Positions 263 through 22,125 of a DNA stretch of 24,000 nt are shown in pieces; position 1 is the first letter of the stretch, and each line of letters starts with the position of its first letter. A program made the position numbers and the translations under genes. The stretch lies in contig NZ_CP042906.1 of NCBI RefSeq assembly GCF_008728855.1, forward strand, positions 3,623,570 through 3,647,569, read 5' to 3'. Below the pieces are notes generated by a model, which ran no database searches, was not told the origin of the DNA, and was given only the letters and a program-made list of their open reading frames with translations. Origin of the DNA: Hypericibacter terrae. Its GTDB lineage: Bacteria; Pseudomonadota; Alphaproteobacteria; Dongiales; Dongiaceae.

Positions 263-309
263 GAGACAGCCGGAGCACGTCAAACAGGGTGCCCCAGAGG
301 AGCCTCACG

Positions 310-963
310 ATGACCATCGTCATTACCGCTTTCGAACGGTCACCCGATGGCGGCAAGGGGCTGGCGCGCGACACGCGCGTTCGCTGGGCGCTCGAGGAAG
401 TGGGTCAGCCCTACGAAGTTCGCCCGGTTTCGTTCCCTGCGCTGAAGGAACCCGCGCATCTGGCCCTTCATCCTTTCGGCCAGATACCGACCTATGAGGA
501 AGGCGATCTGGCGCTGTTCGAGACAGGATCGATCGTCCTCCATATCGCCGAGCGCCATGCGGGGCTGCTGCCGAAGGATGCCAAGGCCCGGGCGCGCGCG
601 ATCACCTGGATGTTTGCCGCGCTCAACACGGTGGAGCCGCCGATCCTCGAGCTCGTCACCGCCAGGCTTCTGGAGAGCGACAAGCCCTGGAGCCAGGAGC
701 GCCTCCCTCTGGTCCAAGATCGCATCCGCGACCGGTTGAAGCCACTTTCCGCCCGCCTCGGCAGTGCCGACTGGCTCGAGGGCGGGTTCAGCGCGGGCGA
801 CCTGATGATGGTGTCGGTGCTGCTCAGGCTGAAGCCATCGGGCCTTCTGGACGAATATCCGAACCTGGCCGCCTATGTCGCCCGCGGCGAAGCGCGGCCC
901 GCCTACAAGCGGGCTTTCGCCGCGCAATCGGCGACTAACGCCGGCAAGTCACCGACCGGCTGA
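310..963 (+). CDS. glutathione S-transferase family protein
   Basis: ORF 289..963. I prefer the internal ATG at 310, which has GAGGAG just upstream. The N-terminal thioredoxin-like GST signature is present (HPFGQIPTYEEGDLALFETGSIVLHIAE), followed by a helical C-terminal domain. Confidence 0.85.
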   Translation: MTIVITAFERSPDGGKGLARDTRVRWALEEVGQPYEVRPVSFPALKEPAHLALHPFGQIPTYEEGDLALFETGSIVLHIAERHAGLLPKDAKARARAITWMFAALNTVEPPILELVTARLLESDKPWSQERLPLVQDRIRDRLKPLSARLGSADWLEGGFSAGDLMMVSVLLRLKPSGLLDEYPNLAAYVARGEARPAYKRAFAAQSATNAGKSPTG

Positions 964-997
964 TGATGCCGCGCATCTCGTTGACGACGAGCGTCGA
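964..997 (-). repeat. internal guaA-like fragment (non-coding relic)
   Basis: TGATGCCGCGCATCTCGTTGACGACGAGCGTCGAG matches guaA nt 13477-13510 at 30 of 34 positions in the same orientation. It lies in the convergent GST/HD spacer. Confidence 0.55.
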
Positions 998-1031
998 GGG
1001 ACAGGACATGCCCTTGTCTTGATGTCGAGCC

Positions 1032-1685
1032 TCAGGCTGCGGAATCCGGGAAGGGAGAGGCCGCGATCAAGTCGCAGGCGTTGGGGCTCTTGAACCCCGG
1101 GATGAAACGCTCGCAGACACCGGCGTTGACGGTGCCGTAGGTGGTCGCGGGCTTGTGCGAAAATCCGGCGAAATACTCCTGAATGAAGCGTTTCTTGAAG
1201 TTGGTACGCGGGTATCGGGCGACGATCTCCTCGCGCAGCGCCGCGGGAAATTGATCGAACCCCACCCCCAGCACATCGAGAAGAACACCCGAATTGAGGA
1301 GCGCCACCTCGGGGCGCATATAGCGCGGGATGCCGGGGGTGGTATGCAGCGCGATCGCTTCCCAGACGGTCTGCACCTGGTCCTCGGCAATGTTGTGGGC
1401 GGTGAGGAACTGCCGGGCGGCATTCGCGCCGTCAACCTCGAAGCGTTCGGCCTGGCTCGAGAAATCCTTGATAAGTCCAAGATCGTGAAATGCGGCGGCC
1501 ACATAGAGGAGCTCGGGGTCGAAGCGCAGTTTCCTCTCGCGACCCTGCTCGGCCGCGAACAGATAGACGCGGATCGAGTGATTGAAGAGCAGATCGGTAG
1601 AATGCCTGCGCAGGATCTCCGTGGCCTCTTTTGCGAGCAAGCTATCGGGAATGACGGGAGCAGAGACGAGATTGGCCGCGGCCAT
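1032..1685 (-). CDS. HD domain-containing protein (metal-dependent phosphohydrolase superfamily)
   Basis: 217-aa ORF with the H...HD motif (HSIRVY ... AAAFHDLGL). AAGGAA lies 7 nt upstream of ATG 1685. Confidence 0.8.
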   Translation of the reverse strand: MAAANLVSAPVIPDSLLAKEATEILRRHSTDLLFNHSIRVYLFAAEQGRERKLRFDPELLYVAAAFHDLGLIKDFSSQAERFEVDGANAARQFLTAHNIAEDQVQTVWEAIALHTTPGIPRYMRPEVALLNSGVLLDVLGVGFDQFPAALREEIVARYPRTNFKKRFIQEYFAGFSHKPATTYGTVNAGVCERFIPGFKSPNACDLIAASPFPDSAA

Positions 1686-1759
1686 TGTCGATTCCTTCGA
1701 AGGTCAGCTATAGAGCTCGGCGATGCGTCCGGCAACGCGAGCCTAACTGGGGTGATCGA

Positions 1760-2695
1760 TCAACTTTCTCGAACGGCAAGCACGATCTTTCCTTTCGGCA
1801 GAGGCCGCACGCGTTCCAGCATGAAATGAGCCGCGCGTGCATCCGCGAGGGGCAGGACTGCCCCCACCTTTGTTCTTAGTTTTCCATCGTCGATGAGGCG
1901 GGCGATCTCCGCGAGATACGGACTCGTTACGTTGACCAAAAAGAAGGCGGATTCGACGCCATGGCTTTCGGCAAGATGCTGATCCGGACGGGACACTGCC
2001 GAAATCAGCTTGCCGCCTCGACGAAGGACCCGAAACGACCGGTTCTGTGTTTCGCCGCCGACCAGATCGATGACAGCGTCCGCGTCCCGAACTTCTTCCT
2101 CGAAGCGCCGGGTCCGGTAGTCGATCACCGTGTCTGCGCCAAGACCGCGCACGAGGGGAATATCGTCCACGGCGACGGTCGCGATCGTTCGCACACCCGC
2201 GCGACGGGCCAGCTGAACCGCATAGGCTCCGACGTTTCCCGCCGCTCCGTGAATAACCGCTGTTTGACCCGCTTTGAGCTGAGCGTGATCAAACAGCGCC
2301 TGCCAGGCCGTCACGGAAATGACGGGAACGGAGGCCGCTTCAACAAAGGTCAGCGAGGTTGGCTTGAGCGAGACCATCGCTGCGGAAGCCAGCGCATACT
2401 CGGCGTAGGCCCCGATGAACTGCGGATTCGTGACACCATAGACCTGATCGCCCACCTGCAGCCCGGAAACCCCTGGCCCCATGGCGACGATTTCACCAGA
2501 CAGATCCGAGCCCAACGTGAGAGGGAGCGGTTGCGGCAGAGCGCTTCTTCCGGCCCTGATCCAGCCATCCCATGGACCGACCCCGGCGGCTTCGACTTTG
2601 ACCAGGATCTCGCCAGGGCCAGGCTCGGGCCGAGGGACTCGCTCGAAACTCATGACCTCCGGCGGTCCAAACTCATGCACGCGCCAAGCCATCAT
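1760..2695 (-). CDS. NADPH:quinone reductase-like zinc-type alcohol dehydrogenase (MDR superfamily)
   Basis: MMAWRVHEFGPPEVMSFERVPRPEPGPGEILVKVEAAGVGPWD and the Rossmann motif AVIHGAAGNVGAYAVQLA. Family homology starts at ATG 2695. An alternative upstream ATG at 2749 has a GGAGGA RBS. The 2950 start of the track ORF is unlikely. Confidence 0.85.
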   Translation of the reverse strand: MMAWRVHEFGPPEVMSFERVPRPEPGPGEILVKVEAAGVGPWDGWIRAGRSALPQPLPLTLGSDLSGEIVAMGPGVSGLQVGDQVYGVTNPQFIGAYAEYALASAAMVSLKPTSLTFVEAASVPVISVTAWQALFDHAQLKAGQTAVIHGAAGNVGAYAVQLARRAGVRTIATVAVDDIPLVRGLGADTVIDYRTRRFEEEVRDADAVIDLVGGETQNRSFRVLRRGGKLISAVSRPDQHLAESHGVESAFFLVNVTSPYLAEIARLIDDGKLRTKVGAVLPLADARAAHFMLERVRPLPKGKIVLAVRES

Positions 2696-3079
2696 TGTTG
2701 AATGAGTTCGCCCCTCACTGACCTCGGGAACGATGCTGCTGGCGGCCATCTGATCCTCCACAACATTCAGCTTGGCGCGCTCCGTGGCGGCGGCACCGCG
2801 CTCGCCGGCGACCTCGTCACGACTGTTCGGGGCATCTCCCGCGAGCCGGAATTTCTCGATCGCGTTCACTTCGGTGAACGGCGGCAGCGGAGGGCGCATG
2901 GATCGTTTCTCCAGAGCGGTTCGTCGGATGGGCTTGTCCGTATTTCGCAATTGACCCCTGCGGCGGACAAGGAACGCGATCCTGCAGATCAGGACAGCCC
3001 TACGTCGTTTCCCGACAATGGCCTGTCGGAGCCCTCGTCGCAGCAGAGGACGGCGGTTTCGTCGCCGGACGGTCCCGAT

Positions 3080-4054
3080 CTAGGCCGGTTCCGCCCGCCG
3101 GAAGCTGGCGCGATACTGGGCCGGTGTCACGCGGAGACGCGTGCTGAATACGATTCTCATCCGGTCCGCCGACCCGAAGCCGCAATCGAAGGCGACGGCC
3201 TTCAGCGGCCGGTCGCTTCCTTCCAGCATCATGCGCGCGGCGTCGACGCGCGCGCGCTCGATGAATTCGTGTGGCGTGATCCCGGTCTCCCGCACGAAAT
3301 GCCGTGCCAAATTCCGGGTGCTCATGCCGACGGCGGCGGCGAGCGAGTCCAAGGTATGACGGCCCGCGATGTCGGCCATGACGTGGTCCTGGATGCGTGC
3401 GATCGGCGCCCCCGGATCGGAAGGTGCCGTGAGATAGGGGCTGAACTGCGACTGTCCGCCTTGGCGCTGGGCAACAACAACCAGCCGCTTGGCGACCTTG
3501 AGCGCCGTTTCCGCGCCGTGCCGCTGCCGGACCAGCGCCAAGCCCAGATCTATCCCCGCCGTCACACCGGCCGAGGTGATCAGCTGTCCATCACGAACAT
3601 AGATCAAATCCGGTTCGACTTTTGCCTTCGGGAACCGGGCCGCCAGCGCCTGTGCATCCTGCCAATGGGTCGTGACCCGCCGGTCGTCCAGGAGGCCGGC
3701 ATAGCCAAGTACAAAAGCCCCGGTGCAGATCGATCCATAGACGCTCGAGCGCCGCGGCAACTCTTTGGCCCACTGAACGAAGTACGGTGCGGGCTCCGCT
3801 TCCGGTGGCGTCGGCGCGCCGGCGACCAGAACGATGTCGAAGCTGCCCGCCGCCTCCTCGAAGGTCAGGTCGGCCACCAGCCCTATGCCGTTCGAGGCGC
3901 GCAGCGGATTGCGGTGAGCCGCGACCAACACCGTTTCGTAGCGGTCCGCGCTGTCGAGAAAGCTATTCGCCTCGCTGAACACGTCCAGCGGCCCGGCCAC
4001 ATCCAGGGCCTGGACCCCCTCATGGACGACGATCGCGACAGTTTGTACCGGCAC
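3080..4054 (-). CDS. GlxA-family transcriptional regulator (DJ-1/PfpI domain fused to AraC-type HTH)
   Basis: The N-terminus VAIVVHEGVQALDVAGPLDVFSEAN and ICTGAFVLGYAGLLD indicate a DJ-1/PfpI-like domain. The C-terminus LDSLAAAVGMSTRNLARHFVRETGITPHEFIERARVDAARMML is an AraC HTH. GTG start at 4054. Confidence 0.9.
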   Translation of the reverse strand: MPVQTVAIVVHEGVQALDVAGPLDVFSEANSFLDSADRYETVLVAAHRNPLRASNGIGLVADLTFEEAAGSFDIVLVAGAPTPPEAEPAPYFVQWAKELPRRSSVYGSICTGAFVLGYAGLLDDRRVTTHWQDAQALAARFPKAKVEPDLIYVRDGQLITSAGVTAGIDLGLALVRQRHGAETALKVAKRLVVVAQRQGGQSQFSPYLTAPSDPGAPIARIQDHVMADIAGRHTLDSLAAAVGMSTRNLARHFVRETGITPHEFIERARVDAARMMLEGSDRPLKAVAFDCGFGSADRMRIVFSTRLRVTPAQYRASFRRAEPA

Positions 4055-4224
4055 CTCTTACCGCCTCTCGAGCTTGGCGCCCATGTTATGCGGGCGGCCC
4101 GCACGCCATAAAAGGCCTCGACTGCGCAAGGAGCCAAGCTCCCCGGACCGGCGCCCGTCTTGATCGATCTTGCGCCATTGAGAAAACCGCCACCGAAACC
4201 ACGCTAGGACCGCCGATTGCCCCG

Positions 4225-4303
4225 TCACTCCCACTCGATCGTTGCCGGCGGCCTCGAGGTCACGTCACAGCCCACCCGGTCGATGCCGAGCGCGTTGTTC
4301 CTA
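4225..4303 (-). repeat. guaA 3'-terminal remnant B (att-like copy of the GMP synthase gene end)
   Basis: The minus strand translates as LRNNALGIDRVGCDVTSRPPATIEWE-stop, compared with the authentic guaA end [24 protein letters not shown]-stop. It is intergenic and has the same orientation as guaA. Confidence 0.75.
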
Positions 4304-4355
4304 AGGACCTTCCGGTGCCGAATTCAGCCTGCGCGGCCGCAAGGACAGGTCTTCC

Positions 4356-4700
4356 TCAGGATGTCGGCCTATCGGCGAGCGCCCGCGCGATGATCGCGTC
4401 GAGATGGGCGCACGCGCAAACGAGCGCCCGGAAGCCGCAGGTGGTTTCGTCGAAGGCCAACGACAGCTCGGTTCCGGCCAGGATCACCGCGTCGGCGCCT
4501 TGATCCCGCACGAGGCGCTGGGCGGGAGCGCCCGCCTGCACGCGGCCCAGCACATAGCTGAGATCGGCATGCGAGATCGAGAGACGCAAGGGGACGCCGC
4601 GCTCGGCGAACGCTTGCGTCAACCGTTCGTAATAGTGAATCGTCGCGCCGGGACCGAGGCCTCCAATCAGACCGATGGTCCGGCCGCTCTCGCCTTTCAT
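4356..4700 (-). CDS. aspartate/glutamate racemase family protein, internally shortened (possible pseudogene)
   Basis: The N-terminus TIGLIGGLGPGATIHYYERL is the family signature. The C-terminal DAVILAGTELSL corresponds to the second catalytic motif but lacks the Cys. At 114 aa it is about half the usual family length. Confidence 0.55.
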   Translation of the reverse strand: MKGESGRTIGLIGGLGPGATIHYYERLTQAFAERGVPLRLSISHADLSYVLGRVQAGAPAQRLVRDQGADAVILAGTELSLAFDETTCGFRALVCACAHLDAIIARALADRPTS

Positions 4701-4730
4701 CGTGACGCCCTTCTCCGAACACCCTTCCCC

Positions 4731-4772
4731 TCACTCCCCCTCGATCGTCCATGGCGGGGCGACCTTCGAGGG
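4731..4772 (-). repeat. guaA 3'-terminal remnant C
   Basis: TCACTCCCCCTCGATCGTCC...CTTCGAGG translates on the minus strand as PSKVAPPWTIEGE-stop. It is collinear with the guaA end apart from an in-frame 6-nt insertion. It lies between the racemase start and the SWIM gene stop. Confidence 0.6.
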
Positions 4773-4784
4773 AGGCCCGCCCGA

Positions 4785-6488
4785 TCAGGGCGTCAGCAAT
4801 TTCATGAGATTGCGTTTGCGGCGGTGGCGGTCCTTGATATCCGCGACGTAAGTGGCCTGTTCGGTTGCGTCGCGCAGCTTGGCCATGCGCGCCACCAGCT
4901 TCACGGCCTCCTCATAGTGCCCGCCATTGACGAGCTCCTCCACCCGCGCGGCATAGACGCCGAGCGCCTCGCGCGGATGACTTTTCTGGCTCGCATCGGC
5001 GAGGTGTTCCTGCGCTCTCATCGAGGCGCCGTGCTTCCGAACCGCGGCCCATGCGCGGTCGAACGCCTTCTCCTGGATGAAAATCGCGATCAGCACCTCT
5101 TGCGGCCCATTCAAGCTCCAGCGATCCCCCGCGCCGCGTTTTCCAGAGGCGGATCGCGCCTCGAGAAAGCCGATCGCCCGCTCGCGCGCACCCGGCCCGG
5201 CCAGCTTGGCAAGCCGCTGATACAGATCGAGGCTCGGGCGCTTCTCGAACAGCCGCCACAGATGCGCGGCCGCCTCCACCTTGCGGCCCTTTCGGGACAG
5301 AAGGTCGGCGACGAGCAGCGTCAGGCCATTGTCGGGCCCTTCATCCTCGAAGATCCACAGACCCTCCTCCGCCCGGCGCAGCGCCTCGTCCTCCCGGCCC
5401 TGGTCGAGGCAGAACTGCGCAAGCTGCCCGTAGCGCCATGGCGAGGAAAGGTCCCTGGCGCGCAGCGCGATACGGGCGTCGATATCGCCCTCGCGCTCGG
5501 CGAAGAAATCCAGGATCGCCATCAGTCGGTCCGGTTCCCATTCGTCGTCGTCCGTCGTGGGTTTCTTCCTGCCCGTCCGCGCCGGCAGCTTGCGCCATGC
5601 GGCCTCGGCCAGGCGCCGATATTCGGCAAGCCCCTGCTCCCCGAGCACGCCTTCATAGAGTCCGGCGGCGCCATAGAACATGTCAAAGGCATCGTGGGTT
5701 TCGCGGCCGAACAGATAGCGCGCAAGCGCCACGGGTTCGGGCGGCGCCGCGGCGCAGGCGGCCAGATGGATGTCTCGCGTCCGCGACAGCAGCGCTCCGC
5801 CATGCCCGTCGGAATCGTCGATCGACTCCATCGCTTTCTCGATTCTTTCCATGGCGTGGTCGGCGAGCGCGCGCACGCGCTCCGCCTGCGGGCCTGAGGC
5901 CATGTCCGCAAGGATATCAAGCGCCTCGTCCACGCCCTCGGCCCAGCGCGACACATCGGCATATTCGATGAAGCCCCGTATGCGCGTGGCGGCGTCGATC
6001 GCCTTGCGCAGCCGCGCCTCGAGCGCCTTGTCGTCCGCATGAACGAGGGAAGCCGCAAGATCGAGCTTGCGGAACAGTGCCGGATCCCGCTCGGCCATAT
6101 CCACGATCAGATCGACCAGCGCGTCGACGCTCCTGGTCTTCAAATGCGCCCGGATACGCCCCAGCGAATCCGGACCGTCCGCCTGCCCGCTTGCGGCGGC
6201 CTCGTTTGCCGCCAGGGCGGTCGCGACCATATGCTTGCAGAAGCCGGAGTCCTCGAAGGCCCGGCAGCTGCAGGAGCCGTCGATGGCACGGCCTCGCCCG
6301 GAAAGCGTCACGCGATAGTCTTCGGTGCCGGCCACCTGCGCCAGCACCCGATCGGCCGCGAGCGACAGGATGGTGACCTTGCCGCCGCGGTGATAGGCCT
6401 CGCCGCGGGCGAAAGTCCGGTCGCCCGTCAGCGCCGCCAGCTCGCCGGGGTCGAATCTCGGCGCGCCCTTCTTCGTCTTATTCGTCAT
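4785..6488 (-). CDS. SWIM zinc-finger protein with a long helical-repeat C-terminal region
   Basis: SWIM signature CSCRAFEDSGFCKH (CxCx8CxH). I prefer ATG 6488 because it overlaps the upstream stop as ATGA. The 44 extra residues of the longest ORF (start 6620) are low-complexity and overlap the upstream gene. Confidence 0.85.
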   Translation of the reverse strand: MTNKTKKGAPRFDPGELAALTGDRTFARGEAYHRGGKVTILSLAADRVLAQVAGTEDYRVTLSGRGRAIDGSCSCRAFEDSGFCKHMVATALAANEAAASGQADGPDSLGRIRAHLKTRSVDALVDLIVDMAERDPALFRKLDLAASLVHADDKALEARLRKAIDAATRIRGFIEYADVSRWAEGVDEALDILADMASGPQAERVRALADHAMERIEKAMESIDDSDGHGGALLSRTRDIHLAACAAAPPEPVALARYLFGRETHDAFDMFYGAAGLYEGVLGEQGLAEYRRLAEAAWRKLPARTGRKKPTTDDDEWEPDRLMAILDFFAEREGDIDARIALRARDLSSPWRYGQLAQFCLDQGREDEALRRAEEGLWIFEDEGPDNGLTLLVADLLSRKGRKVEAAAHLWRLFEKRPSLDLYQRLAKLAGPGARERAIGFLEARSASGKRGAGDRWSLNGPQEVLIAIFIQEKAFDRAWAAVRKHGASMRAQEHLADASQKSHPREALGVYAARVEELVNGGHYEEAVKLVARMAKLRDATEQATYVADIKDRHRRKRNLMKLLTP

Positions 6489-6895
6489 GAGATTGGCCAG
6501 AGCAGCTCGTCGGTCCGGACCCGCTCCAGCGCCTCCTCGAGCGTCAGGGCCGCGTGGAGGAGAAACCACCGCCCGGTATGGCGGCGCCACATCACGTCGA
6601 AACGGGTTTCCGTCAGGCAATCCTCACGATGATCGAGGCGCGTGAAGGCCTCGTCGAACTCCTCGCCGAGATTGTCGGCGAAGCCGGACCGGAAACGTTC
6701 GATGAAACTGTATTGGCCGCCCCGCCATTTGCCGAAGATGTCGACGGGATAGTTGAACTCTGTTACCCGGATCTGCGGCAGAAAACGCGGCTTGAACTCT
6801 TCTCGAACGAAGCGCTCGCATCGTTCGGCGATGGCGGCCTTTTCCTCGTCGCGGAGCGCCCTCGCCCACACCCGTTCCGTGCCTTGCCGCGCCAT
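6485..6895 (-). CDS. hypothetical protein, DUF3024-like
   Basis: 136-aa ORF. Its C-terminal part RFDVMWRRHTGRWFLLH...TLEEALERVRTDELLWP resembles the recalled DUF3024 pattern (W.V.W.R....W..Y ... L.E.L..V..DE....W). It is translationally coupled to both neighbours. Confidence 0.7.
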   Translation of the reverse strand: MARQGTERVWARALRDEEKAAIAERCERFVREEFKPRFLPQIRVTEFNYPVDIFGKWRGGQYSFIERFRSGFADNLGEEFDEAFTRLDHREDCLTETRFDVMWRRHTGRWFLLHAALTLEEALERVRTDELLWPIS

Positions 6896-6903
6896 CCCCG
6901 TTC

Positions 6904-7119
6904 CTAGCTCTCTTTCATCCGCTCCAGCAAATGACGAATGATCGCCAGCTTGTCATCGGACAATCCGGCGAGCCGCCCCTCGTCCAGATAGCCCTCGCCG
7001 ATGAGCCGGGCAAAGACAAAGAGCAGCTGCGAATAGCGATAGTCGAACAGCTCATCGAGGGTCCGGCGCTGCCGCCGCAGATCGTCCTCGATCGCCCATA
7101 TGTCCGACAGCGTCGCCAC
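6904..7119 (-). CDS. fluorescence-recovery-protein-like (FRP-like) small helical protein; minimum extent given, since the coding frame stays open upstream to 7245
   Basis: SDIWAIEDDLRRQRRTLDELFDYRYSQLLFVFARLIGEGYLDEGRLAGLSDDKLAII aligns without gaps to recalled Synechocystis FRP (DDLWKLHDFLSAKRHEIDGKYDDRQSVIIFVFAQLLKEGLVQAEELTFLAADKQSKI). The first canonical start is GTG 7119. The FRP-like N-terminal helix (KWSGSEKKIARRAYDAALEAA...) is encoded at 7120-7224. Confidence 0.7.
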   Translation of the reverse strand: MATLSDIWAIEDDLRRQRRTLDELFDYRYSQLLFVFARLIGEGYLDEGRLAGLSDDKLAIIRHLLERMKES

Positions 7120-7302
7120 CGCGGCCGCCTTTGCCTTGAATTCGGCGACGATACCGGCTTTCGCAGCCTCGAGCGCGGCGTCATAGGCGCGCCGCGCAAT
7201 CTTCTTCTCGGAGCCGGACCATTTGAGGTTGTGCGGGCCCAGGACTCACCTCACTGAGCGGCCTATGGCAGGTCGAAGACCGTGAAACATCCCATCCGCC
7301 CC

Positions 7303-7320
7303 TCACTCCCACTCATCCAT
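7303..7320 (-). repeat. guaA 3'-terminal remnant D (short)
   Basis: TCACTCCCACTC is identical to the first 12 nt of remnant B. The minus-strand reading is DEWE-stop. It sits exactly where the sequence switches to visibly lower GC. Confidence 0.45.
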
Positions 7321-7852
7321 TTTAAGTCATGCTAACACGTTGAATTTACGGCATAACGCTTTTTTGATCGCGCCTCACGATCCGAACTGCGAACCGACAA
7401 AATTTTTCGACGCTGATTTTCAACAAGAAATCTCGCGATTCCGATTCCACGACATTCAGCGACTATCGACATCAATTGGTCGAATTTTCCGCTGATCGCC
7501 GCGGCTGATCGATAGCCAGCAACCACAAAAAAGGCCGTCACGAGACTACCGAACACCCGAGCGCGTGACCAGACCTGCGCTCGTCAGCAATGTCATTCCG
7601 GCCCGCAGCGACGAGTGTTCACACTTCGATTTCCTTGTTCCTCGCCGCAACCAAGCTACGGTCTCGCCTGGCGCAAGTCCGACCGTCGCGAGCCGGCAGC
7701 AGCCGAACCGTTAGATCTGAGCGTATCCGTATACTCCCTGCTTGCGACGTGCGCGATCCGGTCTTTTCATGTAGCGTAAGCTTCTCCGCCCATCGCTATC
7801 TGCGTTGGCGCGATGTCTAGCCGTGCGATTGCCGTCGAGGCTGGAGAAGAAC

Positions 7853-8692
7853 ATGATCATTGACTCCTCCGATGAAGTATCCCGATTCGTCTGGCTCAAG
7901 CGCTTTCCCTTTCCGCGCAACTTCAATGTCACGCCGGAATCGCGCATCGAGCCAGGACACACATGGCCAGCGCCCGCCGGCGCGACACGGACGAAAGCGT
8001 TCGACATCTATCGCTACGATCCCGATTCCGGCGGCAATCCTCGCCTCGACAGGTTTTATGTTGACCTCGACGATTGCGGGCCGATGGTTCTCGATGCGCT
8101 GATCTGGATCAAGAACAAGGTGGATTCGACGCTCGCCTTCCGCCGCTCATGCCGCGAAGGTGTGTGCGGCTCCTGCTCCATGACCATGGACGGCACCAAC
8201 TGGCTGGCCTGCACGCGTTTCAGCTCGGACATGGCGACCCCGGCGACGATTTACCCGCTCGCCAATATGAGAGTCGTCAAAGACCTCGTTCCCGACCAGA
8301 CCCACGTCTTCGCGCAATACGCGGCGATCCAGCCTTGGCTCCGCTCTAAAACGCCCGAGCCCGAGAAGGAGCGACTTCAGTCTGTCGAGGAGCGCGGCCG
8401 GATCGACGGCTATTACGAATGTATCCTCTGCTTCTGCTGCACCTCGGGATGTCCGAGCCACTGGTGGAACGGCGATCGTTTTCTTGGACCAGCGGTACTT
8501 CTTCAGGCGTGGCGCTGGCTGACCGACAGCCGCGACGAGGCAAAGGAAGAGCGGCTCGATAATCTCGAAGACCCATTCCGGCTGTATCGGTGCCACACCA
8601 TCCTCAACTGCACCCGGACCTGTCCGAAGGGATTGAACCCCGGCAAGGCCATCGCCGAGATCAAAAAGATGATCGTCGAGCGCGAGAGCTGA
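7853..8692 (+). CDS. sdhB: succinate dehydrogenase/fumarate reductase iron-sulfur subunit
   Basis: All three cluster motifs are present: [38 protein letters not shown] and [21 protein letters not shown] lies 6 nt upstream of ATG 7853. The N-terminus is about 20 aa longer than recalled rhizobial SdhB. Confidence 0.93.
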
Positions 8693-8694
8693 CC

Positions 8695-9114
8695 ATGGAC
8701 ATCAAGACGATCGCGCCTGCAACGCCGCAGCGTCGCCCGCTGTCACCCAACATTCAGCATTACCGGCCACAACTGACATCAGTTCTGTCGATCGCGAATC
8801 GCATCACCGGGGTCATCCTGAGCGTCGGCGCCGTTGGCCTAGTGATCTGGTTGAGTGCCGCTGCCGCCGGGGCTGAGCCCTACGCCGCCGTCCAGCAAGC
8901 GATCGGCTCGTGGATCGGCCGCTTCGTGTTGTTCGGCTGCACCTTCGCCTTCTTCCTGCACCTATGCGGCGGCATACGTCATCTCGTGTGGGACACCGTG
9001 CACGGCTTCGAGCTGCGTTCGATTTATATCTCGGGATGGTCGGTGGTGGCGGCGAGCATCGCGCTCACCGTGGCGGCCTGGGCGGCTGGTCTTTGCGTCG
9101 GCGGGGGGCTCTGA
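8695..9114 (+). CDS. sdhC: succinate dehydrogenase cytochrome b556 subunit
   Basis: RPLSPNIQHYRPQLTSVLSIANRITG and the heme-ligand region HLCGGIRHLVWD. ATG 8695 lies 2 nt after the sdhB stop. Confidence 0.9.
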   Translation: MDIKTIAPATPQRRPLSPNIQHYRPQLTSVLSIANRITGVILSVGAVGLVIWLSAAAAGAEPYAAVQQAIGSWIGRFVLFGCTFAFFLHLCGGIRHLVWDTVHGFELRSIYISGWSVVAASIALTVAAWAAGLCVGGGL

Positions 9115-9500
9115 TGAATCGCTCCTCCTTCCGCTCTCCGCTAGGACGCGCCATCGGGCTGGGCTCGGCGAAAAGCGGCTCGCAACACTGGCTGGTACAA
9201 CGGGTAACCGCGGTCGCGTTGGTGCCGCTGACACTGTGGTTCGTGGCGTCCATCATCGCCCATGCCGGTAGCGATTACACGACCTTCATCGCCTGGCTGA
9301 GGACACCGTTCGCTGCAGGGGGCATGATCCTGTTGCTGATCGCTCTCTTTCATCACGCCGCGCTCGGCCTGCAGGTAGTGATCGAGGATTATGTTCACTC
9401 GGGCGCCAGATTTGCGGCGGTGATCGCGATCCAGCTTTGCTGCTACGGTCTCGCCGTGACTGGGATCGTCGCGACGCTGCGTATCGCGTTCGGCGGTTGA
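9114..9500 (+). CDS. sdhD: succinate dehydrogenase hydrophobic membrane anchor subunit
   Basis: SPLGRAIGLGSAKSGSQHWLVQRVTAVALVPL and HHAALGLQVVIEDYVH. The start overlaps the sdhC stop as TGATG. Confidence 0.9.
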   Translation: MNRSSFRSPLGRAIGLGSAKSGSQHWLVQRVTAVALVPLTLWFVASIIAHAGSDYTTFIAWLRTPFAAGGMILLLIALFHHAALGLQVVIEDYVHSGARFAAVIAIQLCCYGLAVTGIVATLRIAFGG

Positions 9501-10082
9501 GTAGAGGCGGCGGCGATCGCGTGATTCCGGCTGCGGAGTTGCGGCCGGATAGAGGATCGTGCCGTCGCAGCCCACGGCGGCGCCCGGTGTCAGGCTGGCC
9601 CCGTCGACATGCGATGGTCCCGTGATGTGCATCACACGCTCGCCTTGGCTGAGCAGATAATCGGTGATAATGCGCCGATGACAGCGCCACCAGACGGCCT
9701 CGGCGCACATGATTGCGTACCGGTGCTGGCCGCCCAGTTCCCGCAGTCGCGCAAGGCCTGCGGCAAAGGGCGTCGTCAGGGCATAGTCGGCATAGTTACG
9801 AAAGCCGCGCACCCGCCAATAGGCATTTGGAGAGGGTTCGCCGCCACGCGTCTTTCCGCGAAGGCCGCCAAATTCCGCGATGTGTTCATAGCCGATTTGC
9901 CAAAGCGCCAGCGTTTCGGGGAGGCTATCACCGTTGAATTGCGGATTGGTGCGCGACCGCGGCATCGATCTCACGTCAACCACGAAATTGACGCGGAATT
10001 CCCGGAGGAGATCGACGAATTCGGCGATCTCCCTGGTAGAATGGCCGATGGTGAAGAATGTGTTCGTGTCGGCTCCGGTGAT
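9141..10082 (-). pseudogene. DUF488 domain gene, apparently degenerate (no canonical start for the conserved N-terminus; reads through antisense to sdhD)
   Basis: Hallmarks FFTIGHSTREIAEFVDLL, VVDVRSMPRSRTNPQFN and IMCAEAVWWRCHRRIITDYL. The frame is open from 10121, but the first ATG/GTG/TTG is GTG 9983, inside the domain. Family-like sequence ends near 9530 (GTILYP), yet the frame runs on to 9141 across sdhD. Confidence 0.55.
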
Positions 10083-10219
10083 ATGGCGGCAGCGGTCAAC
10101 CGCGGCGGCATTGCCGCAGAATTATGGTCAAAACACATTGTTTCAACGCTGGCTTTGGGCGCATGCTAGACGCGAGAAAAACTCGTTTGTGTCGCTCGAG
10201 GATCCGAAAGCGCTCGGAA

Positions 10220-10441
10220 ATGATCCTGAAAGCCAAATTCAAGATCGGTGATCATGTGAGCTGGAATTCGGAGGCCGGGCGCGTCAGCGGCGTGATCGTT
10301 CGCGTCCATACGCGCAATTTCGATGTTAACGGCTATACGCATCATGCAAGCGCGGAAGCGCCGCAATACGAGATCAAGAGCAGCAAGACCGAGCACGTCG
10401 CCTTCCACAAAGGCGCGGCGCTCACCCGACTTCGCGACTGA
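10220..10441 (+). CDS. DUF2945 (Hva1-type TUDOR domain) protein
   Basis: KFKIGDHVSWNSEAGRVSGVIVRVHTRNFDVNGYTHHASAEAPQYEIKSSKTEHVAFHKGAALT matches the recalled DUF2945 consensus. I prefer the internal ATG 10220. Confidence 0.8.
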   Translation: MILKAKFKIGDHVSWNSEAGRVSGVIVRVHTRNFDVNGYTHHASAEAPQYEIKSSKTEHVAFHKGAALTRLRD

Positions 10442-10461
10442 CACTCCGCCAGGCGCGATCG

Positions 10462-12216
10462 ATGACAGAAAGCGATCGCCCGATGCCCACGACTTCCCAG
10501 CCTCCCTCGCCCGAACCGCTTCGTGCCAGTCTTAGCGATGCGGACGATCGCATCCGTCTCAATCACTGGATGCCGCCGCAACAGGGAATTTTTCCGCGCA
10601 TCCGGATTGGGAGCCGCTGGATCAATACCTTGTGGGTGCTGCCGGTCGGAGCAGCGGCGCTGCTCTGCCTGATCGCGCTGGCGCAAAGCCTGCGCGAACT
10701 GCCAAGCGTCGCGGCCTTTATTCAAAACCATCCCGGCATCGCGCAATCGGCGCCGCCGGTCGACACGGGCTTTCCGTGGTGGCTACAGCTCCAGCACTTC
10801 CTGAACATGTTCTTCATGCTGTTCATCATGCGGGCCGGCCTGCAAATTCTGGCCGACCATCCACGGCTCTATTGGGGCCGCGACTGCACTCCGGGGAGCG
10901 ATTGGTTCCGGTTCCAGGTGCCGGTACCGAAGGGCCGCATCTGGACTGCCAAGGATGATTCCGTCACACTGCCGACGTGGCTCGGGATTCCCGGATTGCG
11001 CCATACGCTCGGGCTGTCGCGCTGGTGGCACTTCTCGATCAACCTGTTGTGGCTGATCAACGGCATTGCGTTTTATGCGCTGCTGTTTTCGACCGACCAG
11101 TGGCACCGGCTGGTGCCGCTGACCTGGGAGGTTTTTCCCGCAACGCTCTCAACAGCGATCCAATACGCCTCGCTGAACTTCCCGGTCGATGAAGGCTGGA
11201 CCCGCTACAACGGCCTCCAGCAGTTCAGCTACTTCGTCACCGTCTTCGTCGCGGCACCCGTCTCGATCGTCACCGGGTTGATGCAGAGCCCGGCGATCTC
11301 CAATGCGCTTGGCTGGTTTGGCCGGCTGTTCAACCGGCAGGCGATGCGGTCGGTTCACTTCATTTCGTTCGCGTGGTTCGTCGGCTTCATCCTGGCGCAT
11401 GGCGCCATGGTGTTCGTCACCGGCATCCGGCAGAACACCAATCACATGTTCGGCGGCGTCGATGACGCCTCCTGGACAGGGTTCCCACTCTTCCTCCTTG
11501 CGATGGCCATCATGTTTGTCGCCTGGCTCGCCGTCTCGCCTCTCACCATCCGCTACGCGCATCTCGTGCAGCGCTCGGGAGCGTTCATGATCGGCTGGCT
11601 CATGGGGCTGGCCGAAGGTTGGGACCCGCACTCGCAGCTAACCAAGAAGGACATCTCGCCGTATTTCTGGCCGAACGGCACGATGCCTAACTCGAAAGAA
11701 TTCGAGGATTTCTTGGCGGAGAACTTCGCCAGATACCGGCTCCGGATCAGCGGCCTCGTCGAGGCACCACAGGAGTTCTCCCTCGCAGATATCAAGGCGA
11801 TGGCGAAGCAGGAGCAGATCACGACGCATTTCTGCATTCAGGGCTGGTCCGGCGTCGCCGAATGGGGTGGGGTTCCCATGAGCGATATTCTCGCCTTGGT
11901 GAAGCCGACTCCCGAAGCCCGCTATGCCGTGTTCTACTCTCTGGCCGACGGGGCCGATGGCGGCCGTTATTACGACGTCCATAAAATCGAGAACATGAGG
12001 CACGAACTGACAATCCTCGCCTACGAGATGAACGGGGCGCCTGTCAGCGTTCTGCATGGCGCGCCGTTGCGGCTGCGTTGCGAGAACGAACTCGGCTTCA
12101 AGATGGTCAAATGGGTCGTAGCGATCGAGTTCGTGGCGGACTTTGCCGATCTCGGCGCCGGCCAGGGCGGCTACAATGAGGACCACGAATTTTACGGCTA
12201 CCGGATGCCGATTTGA
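10462..12216 (+). CDS. fusion protein: multi-pass cytochrome-b-like membrane domain plus sulfite-oxidase/MsrP-type molybdopterin oxidoreductase domain
   Basis: The N-terminal ~380 aa contain about six hydrophobic helices with conserved His residues (LQHFLNMFF, ADHP, WWHFSINLLW, VHFISFAWFVGFILAHG). The C-terminus carries the Moco-domain motif ITTHFCIQGWSGVAEWGGVPMSDIL and GAPLRLRCENELGFKMVKWV. Confidence 0.85.
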   Translation: MTESDRPMPTTSQPPSPEPLRASLSDADDRIRLNHWMPPQQGIFPRIRIGSRWINTLWVLPVGAAALLCLIALAQSLRELPSVAAFIQNHPGIAQSAPPVDTGFPWWLQLQHFLNMFFMLFIMRAGLQILADHPRLYWGRDCTPGSDWFRFQVPVPKGRIWTAKDDSVTLPTWLGIPGLRHTLGLSRWWHFSINLLWLINGIAFYALLFSTDQWHRLVPLTWEVFPATLSTAIQYASLNFPVDEGWTRYNGLQQFSYFVTVFVAAPVSIVTGLMQSPAISNALGWFGRLFNRQAMRSVHFISFAWFVGFILAHGAMVFVTGIRQNTNHMFGGVDDASWTGFPLFLLAMAIMFVAWLAVSPLTIRYAHLVQRSGAFMIGWLMGLAEGWDPHSQLTKKDISPYFWPNGTMPNSKEFEDFLAENFARYRLRISGLVEAPQEFSLADIKAMAKQEQITTHFCIQGWSGVAEWGGVPMSDILALVKPTPEARYAVFYSLADGADGGRYYDVHKIENMRHELTILAYEMNGAPVSVLHGAPLRLRCENELGFKMVKWVVAIEFVADFADLGAGQGGYNEDHEFYGYRMPI

Positions 12217-12285
12217 TCGTTCGTGGGAGCGCCGGTCGTGGCAAAGAGGCTTGACCGGCGACAAGAGGATGCGGGAGCTGAAACG

Positions 12286-12795
12286 ATGATCGTCGAGGAT
12301 ATATTGCCTTGCGCGATCGAACGTCTGGCCTTGATCGAAGCAGGAGCACCGGTCAGGGACGCGGCCGCGCTCATGTCTAAGCCGCATACCGACCTCATCG
12401 TTGTGTGCAATCATGGCGACATGGTCGGTGTTTTGACAAAGACCGACATCGTCGGCCAGATCGGTGGCTGCACGGGCGCCGGCTGCACGGCCAGGGTGGA
12501 TAGCATCATGACCCGCAATGTCACCTATTGCCGGACACACGAGACATTGCTCGACGTGTGTTCGGTGATGAGGGAACGAGGTCTGCAACGTGTTCCGATC
12601 CTTGACGAAGCACACCGGCCACTCGGCATCACCTATGCGCGGGAAGCCTTGCAGGCTCTGCTTTCGGAGTCAGAGAACCAGGATGAGTTGCTTCGCGATT
12701 ACATGTCCGGGGTCGGGTATCGGGAAGCTGAGCGAAGCGACCATCGCCAGTTCTGGCTATTCACCGATGGATATATGCGCCGACACGAATATTGA
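12286..12795 (+). CDS. CBS domain-containing protein
   Basis: Two CBS repeats (MIVEDIL...DLIVVCNHGDMVGVLTKTDIV and SIMTRNVTYC...RGLQRVPILDEAHRPLGITYAREAL). GGGAG lies upstream of ATG 12286. GTG 12223 is an alternative start. Confidence 0.8.
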   Translation: MIVEDILPCAIERLALIEAGAPVRDAAALMSKPHTDLIVVCNHGDMVGVLTKTDIVGQIGGCTGAGCTARVDSIMTRNVTYCRTHETLLDVCSVMRERGLQRVPILDEAHRPLGITYAREALQALLSESENQDELLRDYMSGVGYREAERSDHRQFWLFTDGYMRRHEY

Positions 12796-12806
12796 AAGGA
12801 GTTGCG

Positions 12807-13154
12807 ATGCCCCGTCAGAAGTCAGGTGACTTCAATCAGCGTCAACAGGCGTTATCGAGATGGGATAACGAAGGCGGAGCCGCCGGTCCCGTGATGGCTC
12901 CGACCGCTGACGAACAACAAATCCCAACTCCAAACATGAGCAATGCTGATCTGGTGGCGCTGCGTGTCCGGGTTATCGCGCTGGAGAATTTGCTGATTGC
13001 GTTGCTCGCCACGGCATCGAATCAGCAGCTCGAACTCGCGCGCGAAATGGCCGGATACATCTCGCCGAGGCCAGGCTTTACCCTTCATCCACTGACCATA
13101 CATGCCGCCGCCCATATGATTGATCTCATTGAGCGGCCGTCGCGCTTCCGATGA
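12807..13154 (+). CDS. hypothetical protein with N-terminal WDNEGGA motif
   Basis: AAGGAG lies 5 nt upstream of ATG 12807. The LSRWDNEGGA motif is typical of a family of small proteobacterial proteins of unknown function. The C-terminal half is helical. Confidence 0.7.
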   Translation: MPRQKSGDFNQRQQALSRWDNEGGAAGPVMAPTADEQQIPTPNMSNADLVALRVRVIALENLLIALLATASNQQLELAREMAGYISPRPGFTLHPLTIHAAAHMIDLIERPSRFR

Positions 13155-13209
13155 CGTGGAAGCCCTTTGATCGATGTGACGGACGCCGCTCCATGCACCA
13201 CGGGATATT

Positions 13210-13244
13210 CGGCTGCGGCTCCGTGAAGCCGCAACCGGTTTTTT
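13210..13244 (+). terminator. Rho-independent terminator closing the 10220-13154 operon
   Basis: CGGCTGCGGCT / AGCCGCAACCG form an 11-bp stem with one mismatch and a 6-nt loop, followed by G and TTTTTT. It lies 56 nt after the stop at 13154. Confidence 0.6.
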
Positions 13245-13419
13245 CAGGCCGCATGCGGCATGCGAGACGTGAAGGTAGCCCGGGAAATCGAGATCTTGGT
13301 GCAGCGGGATCTGCTTGCGACGTCTATTCGCGCATCGCGCTGCCAATCGAAGACAATCGGAAAGCAATGCGACGCCAAGGTATTCTATGATCTCCTAGAC
13401 TATCCTAAATTACTTTCCT

Positions 13420-14967
13420 TCACTCCCATTCGATCGTCCCCGGCGGCTTCGAGGTAACGTCATAGACCACGCGGTTGATGCCGCGCACCTCGTTGACGAT
13501 GCGGGTCGAGACGCGGCCGAGGAAGTCCATCGGGAAGGGGAAGAAGTCGGCGGTCATGCCGTCGGTCGAGGTGACGGCGCGCAAGGCGCAGACGCGGTCA
13601 TAAGTGCGGGCGTCCCCCATCACGCCCACAGTGCGCACCGGCAGCAGCACGGCGAAGGCCTGCCAGATTGCGTCATAGAGGCCGGCATTCTCGATCTCCT
13701 GCAGATAGATCGCGTCGGCCTTGCGCAGGATGTCGAGCTTCTCCTTGTCGATGTCGCCCATCACGCGGATGGCGAGACCCGGTCCCGGGAAGGGATGGCG
13801 GCGCACCATGCGCTCCGGCAATCCCAGCTCGCGGCCCAGCGCGCGCACCTCGTCCTTGAAGAGCTCGCGCAGCGGCTCGACCAGCTTCATGCGCATGCGT
13901 TCCGGCAGGCCGCCCACATTGTGGTGGGACTTGATCGTCACGCTGGGGCCGCCGGTGAAGGAGACGGATTCGATCACGTCGGGATAGAGCGTGCCCTGCG
14001 CCAGGAAATCGGCGCCGCCGATCTTCTTCGCCTCCTCCTCGAACACGTCGATGAAGAGTCGGCCGATGGTCTTGCGCTTGAGCTCGGGCTCCTCGAGCAG
14101 CGCCAGCTCACCCAGGAACAGATGCGAGGCGTCGCGATGCACCAGCGGGATGTTGTAATGGCCGCGGAAGAGCTCGACCACCTGCTCCGCCTCGCCTTCG
14201 CGCAGCAGGCCGTGATCGACGAAGATGCAGGTGAGCTGCTCGCCGATCGCCTCATGGATCAGCACGGCCGCCACCGAGGAATCCACGCCGCCCGAAAGCC
14301 CGCAGATGACGCGGCCCTTGCCGACCTGCTTGCGGATCGCCTCGACCGCCTGCTGGCGGAAGGCGGCCATGGTCCAGTCGCCTTTGGCGCCCGAGACGCG
14401 GCGCACGAAATTCGAGATCAGCTTGGCGCCGTCGGGGGTATGCACCACCTCGGGATGGAACTGCACGCCATACATCTTGCGGCTGTCGTCGGCGATGGCG
14501 GCGAAGGGCGCGCCGTCGCTGACCGCCACCGGGCGGAAGCCCGGCGGCAGCTTCACCACCTTGTCGCCGTGGCTCATCCAGACCTGGTGCCGCTCGCCCG
14601 GATTCCAGAGGCCCTCGAACAGGTCGCAAGGCTCCTTGATCTCGATCACCGCGCGGCCGAACTCGCGGGCCTCGCCGCGCTCGACCTTGCCGCCGAGCTG
14701 CTCGCAGATCGCCTGCTCGCCATAGCAGATGCCCAGCACCGGCGTGCCGAGCTCGAAGGCCTCGTGCGGCGCCTTGGGCGCGTCGCCCTCATAGATCGAG
14801 GCCGGGCCGCCCGACAGGATCACGCCCTTGGGCTTGAAGTTCTTGATGCGCTCCGGGGCGGCGTTGAAGGGGAGGATCTCGCAATAGACCCCCGCCTCGC
14901 GCACGCGCCGCGCTATGAGCTGGGTGACTTGGGAACCGAAATCGAGGATCAGGATGCGATCGGTCAT
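13420..14967 (-). CDS. guaA: glutamine-hydrolysing GMP synthase
   Basis: 515 aa. GATase motif GICYGEQ, PP-loop SGGVDSSV and the universal C-terminus KPPGTIEWE. Confidence 0.97.
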
Positions 14968-16214: not shown

Positions 16215-16311
16215 GGGGAACAAAATGTAAGGGCCGGCGGGTTCTGTCAAACGGGGTTGAGCGGAGCTCGGGCTGACGCCCTCGCAATTATCCGTCACGG
16301 TGAAAGAGGTC

Positions 16312-16353
16312 CACGCCCCCTCCCCATGCGGGAGGGGGTAGGGGGAGGGGTGA
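16312..16353 (+). repeat. G/C-rich hairpin repeat R1 (CCCCTCCCC-N-GGGAGGGGG type)
   Basis: It matches R6 (22126-22167) at 41 of 42 nt and contains a self-complementary CCCCCTCCCC/GGGAGGGGG stem. Confidence 0.85.
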
Positions 16354-16542
16354 TCGTGGAACGCGCTTTCGCCCTTCTGTCATGCCCGGACTTGATCCAC
16401 GGCTGTCCGGTTGAGGTTTCTCCGAGATTGTTTAGAGCGCGGACTTGGAACGCAGAATGCGCATCTGGCCTCGTTCGGGTCACGAGACTCCGAAACTGAG
16501 TCCACCCCTTCAACGTCTCTGCCTTTCACCACGTCATCTTGT

Positions 16543-16594
16543 CCCCTCCCCCCTTGAGGGGGAGGTTAGGGTGGGGGGGTGATCGAAGAACGCG
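16543..16594 (+). repeat. G/C-rich hairpin repeat R2 (inside the MITE-like element)
   Basis: CCCCTCCCCCCTTGAGGGGGAGGTTAGGGTGGGGGGGTGATCGAAGAACGCG. It has the same architecture as R1 and R6, and as the reverse complements of R3 and R5. Confidence 0.8.
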
Positions 16595-16645
16595 ATGATG
16601 ACGGAGCCTTGAGCCACACGAGCTTGGCGAACATCGAGTTTGTGG

Positions 16646-16684
16646 CCACCCCCACCCCAGCCTCCCCCTCAAGGGGGGAGGGGA
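16646..16684 (-). repeat. G/C-rich hairpin repeat R3 (inverted copy, inside the MITE-like element)
   Basis: Its reverse complement CCCCTCCCCCCTTGAGGGGGAGGCTGGGGTGGGGGTGG closely matches R2. Confidence 0.8.
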
Positions 16685-16770
16685 AGAAAGCAGAGCAACG
16701 AGATTCTCCTTCAATGGCGCCAACCGGACAGCCGTGGACTTGATCCGGGCATCCAGTCTCACCGGGCCCT

Positions 16771-16801: not shown

Positions 16802-16825
16802 AAAAAGTGCATCGTGGCGCTGATA

Positions 16826-22112: not shown

Positions 22113-22125
22113 TAGAAAAAAGAAT

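Follow-up and report, generated by a model that had tools for sequence, protein, structure and literature searches.

The guaA locus and its array of gene ends

We analysed a stretch of 24,000 nt from Hypericibacter terrae (Rhodospirillales, Dongiaceae), called here the window, to which all coordinates refer unless another locus is named. It contains guaA (13420..14967, minus strand, recognised by its translation), coding for a GMP synthase 100% identical to the H. terrae GuaA. The 3' end of this gene, the target of the events discussed below, is followed towards lower coordinates by an array of partial copies of itself (B, C, D and E, the authentic end being copy A), all in the same orientation as the guaA end and all within 13 kb. 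These copies bound four blocks of DNA. Block 1 (7321..13419, genes on both strands), the guaA-proximal islet, is bounded by A and D and was further characterised by profile matches and GC content (55-64%, against 66-72% in the core). Block 2 (4773..7302, minus strand) lies between D and C, block 3 (4304..4730, minus strand) between C and B, and block 4 (999..4224, minus strand) between B and E.

Copies were sought by aligning the last 300 nt of guaA to the rest of the window, and local-alignment scores were judged against a null generated from the window sequence (null maximum score 19). Copy A (13420-13437, minus strand) comprises the last 18 nt of guaA and acts as attL/attB. Copy B (4225..4303, minus strand), an attR, has a 79-nt guaA-like arm with a perfect core (4229-4236) and the stop codon. 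It is 82.7% identical to the guaA end over 75 nt (4225-4299, E=9e-16, local score 49), in agreement with the four-fifths identity estimated by eye in an earlier note on this DNA, and 4225-4302 translate as RNNALGIDRVGCDVTSRPPATIEWE followed by a stop; the reading given in that note was correct except for its leading L, which requires one more base. Copy C (4731..4772, minus strand) is a decayed attR with a guaA-like arm of ~42 nt that contains a 6-nt insertion. Its part at 4731-4757 is 85% identical to the guaA end over 27 nt (E=0.007; a score of 19, in the top 0.2% of the null), and its translation, PSKVAPPWTIEGE followed by a stop, has the in-frame insertion that had been read before. The terminal bases of C and B are identical at 17 of 18 positions (0.04 such matches expected), and the terminal 18-mer occurs three times in the window against an expectation of 0.04.

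Copy D (minus strand) is a 12-mer at 7303-7314, an exact copy of the TCACTCCCACTC of B, as the earlier note had claimed; it matches the guaA end at 11 of 12 nt (E=54, score 10). Together with the right-end module of block 1, described below, it spans 7303..7540 (strongest at 7303-7489). Allowing up to one mismatch, the 12-mer TCACTCCCACTC is found at four sites, namely A, B, C and D, all on the plus strand, when 0.07 were expected. These figures, together with the alignment of B, bear out the array proposed in the note. The array has five copies and not four, since one of them, E, had been missed. Copy E (959..998, minus strand, with a weak extension to 929) is an internal guaA fragment corresponding to nt 52-91 from the stop, 85% identical over 40 nt and 74.6% over 71 nt (929-998, E=5e-8, score 31), and reads in frame as STLVVNEMRGII against the corresponding guaA segment. 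It is devoid of the terminal 51 nt, hence of the core and the stop codon, and its conserved part starts at the stop codon of a glutathione S-transferase (GST) gene. A candidate sixth copy at 2568-2595, with a score equal to that of C, lies inside a Zn-dehydrogenase gene and was rejected as a chance match.

Two types of scar can be told apart by the element side of the core. The first (B, C and E, and also L012, L042 and L082 among the other loci) has a guaA-like arm of 25-307 nt, and the elements that left it had an attP that mimicked the gene end. The second (D, and also contigs L089 and L093) has a non-guaA module ending in ...AAAATGGAT. The flank distal to B (4190..4224, minus strand; CGGGGCAATCGGCGGTCCTAGCGTGG in guaA orientation) resembles the native post-guaA sequence of L090 and L093 (GGGGTGCTATCGGCGGCGGTAGCC; AGGGCAATCGGCGGCAATAGCGT), and the pattern CTANNNCCGCCGATNGC has its single window occurrence within it (0.09 expected). 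This flank is either ancestral downstream DNA or the start of block 4, as an element-borne mimic of ancestral DNA. The attL side of L089 gives an example of such a mimic of native downstream sequence. Copy E, which lies further out, leans towards this second possibility, but not decisively.

A shared att core

The integrase of GIsul2 uses an 8-bp att core, 5'-GAGTGGGA-3', at the guaA 3' end, and its 19-bp att sites share this core (PMC9376610). The common core that was looked for across A, B, C and D is the same one: copies B and D have it without any mismatch, A (GAATGGGA) and C (GAGGGGGA) with one mismatch each, and E does not have it at all. It is located at 13424-13431 in A (TCCCATTC, equal to GAATGGGA), at 7307-7314 in D (TCCCACTC, perfect) and at 4735-4742 in C (TCCCCCTC, one mismatch). 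Read in guaA orientation, the sites are GAGTGGGAGTGA in B and D, GAATGGGAGTGA in A and GAGGGGGAGTGA in C, and the core overlaps the last E-W-E codons of guaA. The 12-mer TCACTCCCACTC (GAGTGGGAGTGA) offers a practical annotation marker of island boundaries downstream of guaA.

In the functional H. terrae guaA a synonymous substitution, GAA for GAG, turns GAGTGGGA into GAATGGGA. GAG is present in all six Hypericibacter-clade relatives (6/6), and the GAA variant appears in 4 of 80 surveyed alphaproteobacterial loci (among the matches listed), including the islet-bearing Reyranella locus L042.

The guaA 3' end in related genomes

The 80 guaA loci of this survey have a GuaA at most 78% identical among the matches listed, and close relatives were found by protein homology instead. 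Compared with L081, L082, L083 and L085 (GuaA 98%, 94% and 92% identical), the window retains 88-95% nucleotide identity up to base 13420, the final base of the guaA stop codon, and none beyond it. Synteny between L089 and L092 is likewise broken at the guaA stop. The upstream side (higher coordinates), with two GNAT genes, creD, histidine kinases and rsmB, is syntenic in the relatives. The content 3' of guaA differs among them, amounting to four different things. In L081, the closest relative by GuaA (98%), a tyrosine integrase of the P4 type (domains Arm-DNA-bind_3, Phage_int_M and Phage_integrase) lies ~300 nt after guaA and is followed by AlpA. L082 and L083 have NmrA, cupin and other genes together with a 160-nt internal guaA fragment, and L085 has a LysR regulator.

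Integrases 88-96% identical to the L081 enzyme occur in Sphingomonas, Paraburkholderia, Collimonas, Xanthomonas, Pseudomonas, Shewanella and E. coli, as well as in Brucella suis and B. canis (~91%), so that integrases of this kind span Alpha-, Beta- and Gammaproteobacteria. The identity of the L081 integrase to the GIsul2 Int on pAB3 is 92.4%, and the annotation of pAB3 comprises the full GIsul2 set (int, alpA, repA, repC, trbJKL, ars, the CR2 element and sul2). More distant homologues (43-59% identity) are located ~230-320 nt after guaA in five of the 80 surveyed loci (among the matches listed), belonging to Roseomonas, Novosphingobium, Sphingomonas, Xanthobacter and Mesorhizobium. A sixth locus, from Novosphingobium lubricantis (L032, 11838-12038), retains at the usual position no more than the opening 67 codons of a guaA-type integrase, which directly illustrates how integrases decay beside guaA. 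That the guaA 3' end is an attachment site for tyrosine recombinases, as the note had stated, is supported for the H. terrae lineage by the arrest of synteny at 13420 and by the int and alpA genes found there in L081. The precedent that it had named, the Mesorhizobium tripartite integrative and conjugative elements (ICEs), does use guaA, but its IntG is distant (43%), and the apt family is that of GIsul2, the IncP island and the PIMEs.

The window itself is devoid of such genes. Scans of all its sizeable open reading frames (ORFs) with Pfam, NCBIfam and PADLOC found no integrase, excisionase, relaxase or transposase, and tblastn of the L081 Int and AlpA against it gave a best E>0.6, with no trace of an int or alpA pseudogene, in line with what had been noted for the blocks. 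Domains of repA/repC, relaxase and trbJKL are likewise missing from blocks 1-4, where an oriT might nevertheless escape a search by sequence alone. No tRNA gene was found in the window.

Integrase-less islets with a conserved end

Two JGI contigs, L089 and L090, carry the same GuaA (85% identical to that of the window) and are 99.4% identical to each other. L089 equals L090 plus 2,375 bp inserted directly after guaA and flanked by a 39-nt imperfect repeat, so that L090 provides the empty site (...ATCGAGTGGGAGTGAGGGGTGCTATCGGCGGCGGTAGCC) and L089 the attL (...GAGTGGGAATGAGGGGCACTATCGGCGGCGATAGCG) and attR (...AAAATGGATGAGTGGGAGTGAGGGATGCTATCGGCGGCGGTAGCC). A comparison of the downstream region in relatives, which the earlier note had proposed, thus yields an occupied and an empty site, besides four relatives that differ after the stop. 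The genes of the L089 islet code for an MJ1673-like protein and for an AAA_14/DUF4143 ATPase; an integrase gene is missing. The D end of the window is 89% identical over 149 nt to the element side of the L089 islet attR (85.6% over 188 nt, E=2e-56). Outside this end module, block 1 and the L089 islet are unrelated, and no trace of the L089 ATPase was found in the window. This comparison validates copy D independently, since islets of other genomes have att ends homologous to its flank.

When metagenomes were scanned with a 22-mer of the module, one further contig, L093, was retrieved, in which two direct copies of module and core, 82-85% identical to the D end of the window, delimit tandem islets. 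The first module closes an ATPase islet 94% identical to that of L089. The second closes a 10.4-kb islet (1895-12261 of L093) that contains a truncated DUF4143 gene and a type III-B CRISPR-Cas system, with Cmr1-6/Cas10 (RAMPs, Cas10/Cmr2 and Cmr3) and Csm6, a complete-looking effector set. No integrase was found in the L093 islets. The four modules (one in the window, one in L089 and two in L093) align over ~240 nt with a mean identity of 82%. Block 1 is therefore one member of a family of islets without integrase in which the right end is conserved and the cargo exchangeable; this combination suggests, as far as sequence can tell, a dedicated integrase-less unit. The module may be an attP arm or a regulatory region. 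It was not found in GIsul2, nor in viral contigs apart from a chance 20-mer in L094. Short RATCG-like repeats were seen inside it, and these might be candidate arm-type sites.

Integrase-less blocks with guaA-end repeats were also found in other genomes. A Pelagibius metagenome-assembled genome (MAG; L012, 3825-7036) has one with a 68-nt repeat at 97% identity, HEPN_Swt1 and DUF5343; a Kiloniellaceae MAG (L003, 11549-14953) has one with a 25-nt repeat at 100% and a weak SIR2-like match; and the Reyranella chromosome (L042, 11552-15777) has one with a 307-nt repeat at 85%, PIN, aldo-keto reductase and TetR. Judging from their domains, these blocks carry putative defence-like genes. A 404-aa ORF of the L012 islet, of the size and at the place of an integrase, gave no Pfam match and had no similarity to Int.

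Origin of the array

In our view the array was very probably generated by serial site-specific integration at the guaA 3' end, used as attB by a P4-like tyrosine integrase of the GIsul2 / IncP-island / PIME type. An incoming circle would carry an attP that mimics the guaA end; recombination within the core would rebuild the gene end and shove the earlier one distally, where it would stay as an attR scar, and repetition of the process beside guaA would stack the blocks by age. Block 1 (A-D) would then be the youngest, followed by block 2 (D-C), block 3 (C-B) and block 4 (B-E), and the older blocks would have decayed afterwards by deletion and mutation. Islets of the block 1 type would have been moved in trans by a co-resident integrase of the GIsul2/PIME type. 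Movement in trans is the most likely course for them because near-identical strains differ by the gain or loss of such islets, and for block 1 itself it is favoured by the conserved module with exchanged cargo, by the L089/L090 polymorphism and by the precedent of the CR2-sul2 unit. The order of events and the trans-mobilisation are what we infer from this arrangement, and any view on whether a block is still mobile has the same footing. Tandem accretion of integrase-less blocks resembling cis-mobilisable elements (CIMEs), as the earlier note had it, is supported by the core, by the relatives and by the polymorphic L089/L090 islet.

The older junctions show decay, as indicated by the 6-nt insertion and the core mutation of C, by the loss of the core in E and by the racemase-like stub of block 3. 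Blocks 3 and 4 and copies C and E look like decayed scars and not like mobilisable units, and B looks decayed as well. Blocks 2-4 either arrived without an integrase or lost it later, and block 4 is either an older islet or ancestral DNA.

A more far-reaching reading is possible, and we hold it only tentatively: that Dongiaceae-like bacteria have at the guaA end dedicated integrase-less "cassette" islets, made of arbitrary cargo, the ~240-nt att-proximal module and the GAGTGGGA core, which GIsul2/PIME integrases capture, stack and exchange in trans. Their cargo so far would be the type III-B CRISPR-Cas system, the AAA_14/DUF4143 ATPase and the respiratory and molybdenum cofactor (Moco) set of block 1. 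If so, the locus would resemble an integron, with an array at a housekeeping gene in which genes for defence and metabolism are shuffled, and would not be a graveyard of decayed elements.

Several observations weigh against serial integration in trans. The integrase is absent from the 24-kb window, and a trans-acting enzyme in this strain is hypothetical; the int-proximal arm (the attL-int intergenic region) of GIsul2-type elements has no similarity in the window either. The core is mismatched in A, mutated in C and missing in E, so that most junctions may be dead. The module family consists of only four copies from three sources, and the module gave no Rfam family, no convincing conserved fold or covariation and no sigma-70-like promoter. 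Finally, the difference between L089 and L090 could reflect a deletion via the 39-nt repeat and not integrase movement.

The rival explanation that survives best, although we consider it rather improbable, is that of decay only. The blocks would be the stumps of complete, integrase-bearing ICEs or integrative and mobilisable elements (IMEs), from which int, alpA, rep and mob were later deleted; they would never have moved without an integrase and would be immobile now. The racemase stub, the indel and core mutation of C and the core-less E are what such decay would leave, and so are the truncated integrase beside guaA in L032 and the truncated guaA copies in L082. Furthermore, integration, decay to a CIME and a new integration are the three steps of the standard model (PMC5704250). 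However, of two strains 99.4% identical, one has the 2.4-kb L089 islet and the other does not; the att junctions of the islet are clean and no vestige of an integrase is left in it, nor does the window show any trace of an int or alpA pseudogene. The module is kept at 82-89% in the window, L089 and both L093 islets while the cargo is wholly swapped, which indicates selection on the islet end and not random decay. By way of internal att sites, the GIsul2 Int can also give rise to integrase-less units and mobilise them (PMC9376610).

Local processes, by which the guaA terminus would have been multiplied through segmental duplication, gene conversion or RecA-mediated rearrangement, or would contain a repeated terminator-like element, are very unlikely. 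The copies are indeed same-oriented and within 13 kb, and a palindrome (CTATCGGCGGCGATAG) in the native guaA-downstream flank might be a repeated terminator. Against this, the DNA between the copies is unrelated, compositionally foreign and different in every relative from the stop codon on; the shared core is the experimentally defined core of the integrase (PMC9376610), and the cognate integrase is located at the same site in the nearest relative. This explanation is already largely refuted.

Chance resemblance of B, C and D to the guaA end through mere GC-rich composition, which the note had thought unlikely for B, has a negligible probability: D is at the null level in the generic alignment and C is borderline, with an equal-scoring match inside a gene (2568-2595), but B exceeds the null maximum (49 against 19), B and E reach E=9e-16 and E=5e-8, the 12-mer and the 18-mer are found four and three times against 0.07 and 0.04 expected, and the D flank has homologues at the att ends of islets elsewhere (E=2e-56), so that chance is refuted for B, D and E and C alone is the weakest copy.

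Comparison with known systems

The closest known system is GIsul2, whose Int excises and integrates the element in recA-deficient E. coli and, in the same background, likewise moves the integrase-less CR2-sul2 unit via an internal att site (PMC9376610). The window shares with it the target, the guaA 3' end, and the 8-bp core in copies B and D; the integrase at guaA in the nearest relative, L081, is nearly that of GIsul2 (92.4% identity), and CR2-sul2 provides a precedent for the Int-driven excision and integration of an integrase-less, att-bounded segment. Unlike GIsul2, the window is free of int, alpA, repA/repC, trbJKL and resistance genes; the cargo found in it is of a metabolic or candidate-defence kind, its host is an environmental member of the Rhodospirillales, and its islet type carries the ~240-nt end module.

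IMEs at the guaA 3' end include the IncP island of B. suis, GIsul2 and ATE-1 (PMC5704250), and PIMEs at guaA are pervasive in Pseudomonadota, several PIME subfamilies sharing this attB (bioRxiv 10.64898/2026.01.12.698999). The IncP island (Brucella suis, Burkholderia glumae) and the PIMEs are comparable to the window as IMEs at this very end, with int and alpA. Compared with this family as a whole, the window has the location at the guaA 3' end and att sites with the shared core, and lacks an own tyrosine integrase (Arm-DNA-bind_3 plus Phage_integrase) with AlpA by attL as well as a replication and mobilisation module. What defines the IncP island and the PIMEs is the possession of int, alpA, repA and a mobilisation module, all of which are missing from the window blocks. 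The words "tandem" and "integrase-less" do not occur in the text of the PIME preprint (bioRxiv 10.64898/2026.01.12.698999).

CIMEs such as those related to ICESt1/ICESt3 of Streptococcus thermophilus are also flanked by attL and attR, have no integration or transfer genes and are arranged in tandem behind a housekeeping gene, at its 3' terminus (PMC5704250). Such tandem arrays originate in three steps, namely integration, decay to a CIME and integration of a new element, and a related element can mobilise the CIME in cis or in trans (PMC5704250). Direct guaA-end copies in the role of attL and attR bound A-D, D-C and C-B, and partly B-E, where E is core-less; none of these segments has integration or transfer genes of its own. 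Signs of decay are visible in blocks 3 and 4, and no remnant of int, of mob or of the int-proximal arm was found in the window. ICESt1/ICESt3 belong, however, to another phylum, target gene (fda) and integrase family, and the conserved end with exchanged cargo of the window islet type is unpredicted by simple decay.

The Mesorhizobium ICEs, and IntG of the tripartite ICESym, also use guaA (PMC8627217). They resemble the present case in having a guaA attachment site within the Alphaproteobacteria, and Mesorhizobium sp. L074 has an integrase at the same position after guaA; this integrase is only 43% identical to that of L081. They are conjugative elements of 65-850 kb with three-way recombination, and nothing comparable, neither an IntG-type integrase nor a three-part att system, is present in the window. 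The guaA-flanked defence island of Stenotrophomonas maltophilia, on the other hand, is a variable guaA-side island that gathers diverse defence systems (PMC11680222). Its counterparts here would be the candidate defence protein PDC-S62 in block 2, the type III-B CRISPR-Cas system in L093 and the HEPN, PIN and SIR2-like genes at the other loci. That study dealt with gene content only, with no att arrays or integrase-less units (PMC11680222).

The phenomenon as such is well known: tandem accretion of CIME-like units behind the 3' end of a gene, the use of guaA as an attB and defence islands flanked by guaA have all been described. The window is a clear instance of island accretion, but an ordinary one, to which the family of islets that share the module adds a modestly novel detail. 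The array places an environmental soil alphaproteobacterium in the host range of the guaA-targeting GIsul2 / IncP-island / PIME family, best known from clinical resistance islands, and shows the build-up of cargo-only blocks at the guaA site. The module common to unrelated cargos hints that integrase-less units may be regular hitchhikers of the guaA integrase family. If this is true, it bears on the spread of defence and metabolic genes that have no mobility genes of their own.

Cargo of the blocks and other features of the window

Domain scans found the gene content of the blocks to be as described before. Block 1 has on the plus strand sdhB-like (7805-8692) and sdhC/D-like genes (8590-9114 and 8910-9500), in the order B-C-D and with no sdhA flavoprotein, followed by a cytochrome b561-molybdopterin oxidoreductase fusion (10462-12216) and a CBS protein (12223-12795); a DUF488 gene (9141-9983) is on the minus strand. 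The fusion protein has 584 aa and joins a cytochrome b561 domain to an MsrP/SorA-like molybdopterin domain. The sdhBCD-like genes and the b561-Moco fusion make an unusual respiratory set for an islet. ORFs at 7332-7556, 9609-10169, 12792-13154, 12852-13367 and 13151-13390 have no family assignment.

Block 2 (all genes on the minus strand) contains an FRP-like ORF (6904-7245; PF18032, E=9e-21) and a DUF3024 gene (6485-6895), which precede a SWIM zinc-finger protein (4785-6620) that matches, along its entire length, PDC-S62, a candidate defence protein of PADLOC (E=2e-51). Codons 1-42 of the FRP-like ORF include no ATG, GTG or TTG, and it may have a rare start codon or be damaged. The sole content of block 3 is an Asp/Glu-racemase-like stub of 114 aa (4356-4700, minus strand), with a Pfam score of 28.7 bits, under the cut-off, and an NCBIfam match covering residues 7-31 only. 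Since the N-terminal IGLIGGLGPGAT motif is fused to the C-terminal AVILAGTEL motif within these 114 aa, when real racemases have ~230 aa, the stub is an internally deleted pseudogene, and block 3 is a deletion remnant. Block 4 codes for an AraC/DJ-1 regulator (3080-4054), a Zn-dependent dehydrogenase (inside the 1760-2950 ORF) and an HD-domain protein (1032-1685).

At the border of the array, the GST gene (289..963, plus strand) occupies positions 2-963 together with a truncated MPG gene. We searched for this GST in other genomes in order to locate the resumption of core synteny. It is ~90% identical in nucleotides to L087 (5424-6052) and L088 (4204-4875), where the contexts are unrelated, and it adjoins an IS3-family transposase in L088; Bradyrhizobium GSTs (86%) are as near as any other at the protein level. 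The gene is horizontally mobile, because the homology stops at the ORF edges in these unrelated contexts, and the distal limit of the array is therefore not fixed by it.

Intergenic gaps on the core side of guaA contain, at 16303-16353, 16542-16694, 16822-16874 and 22074-22167, a family of palindromic repeats rich in G/C (CCCCTCCCC...GGGGAGGGG, 36-51 nt, 77-94% alike), with a related piece in L081 and L082. This family looks like repetitive extragenic palindromes (REP-like). Some of its members are enclosed by a pair of 32-nt inverted repeats (16382-16413 and 16721-16752, 84% complementary, 307 nt apart), which is possibly an insertion similar to a miniature inverted-repeat transposable element.

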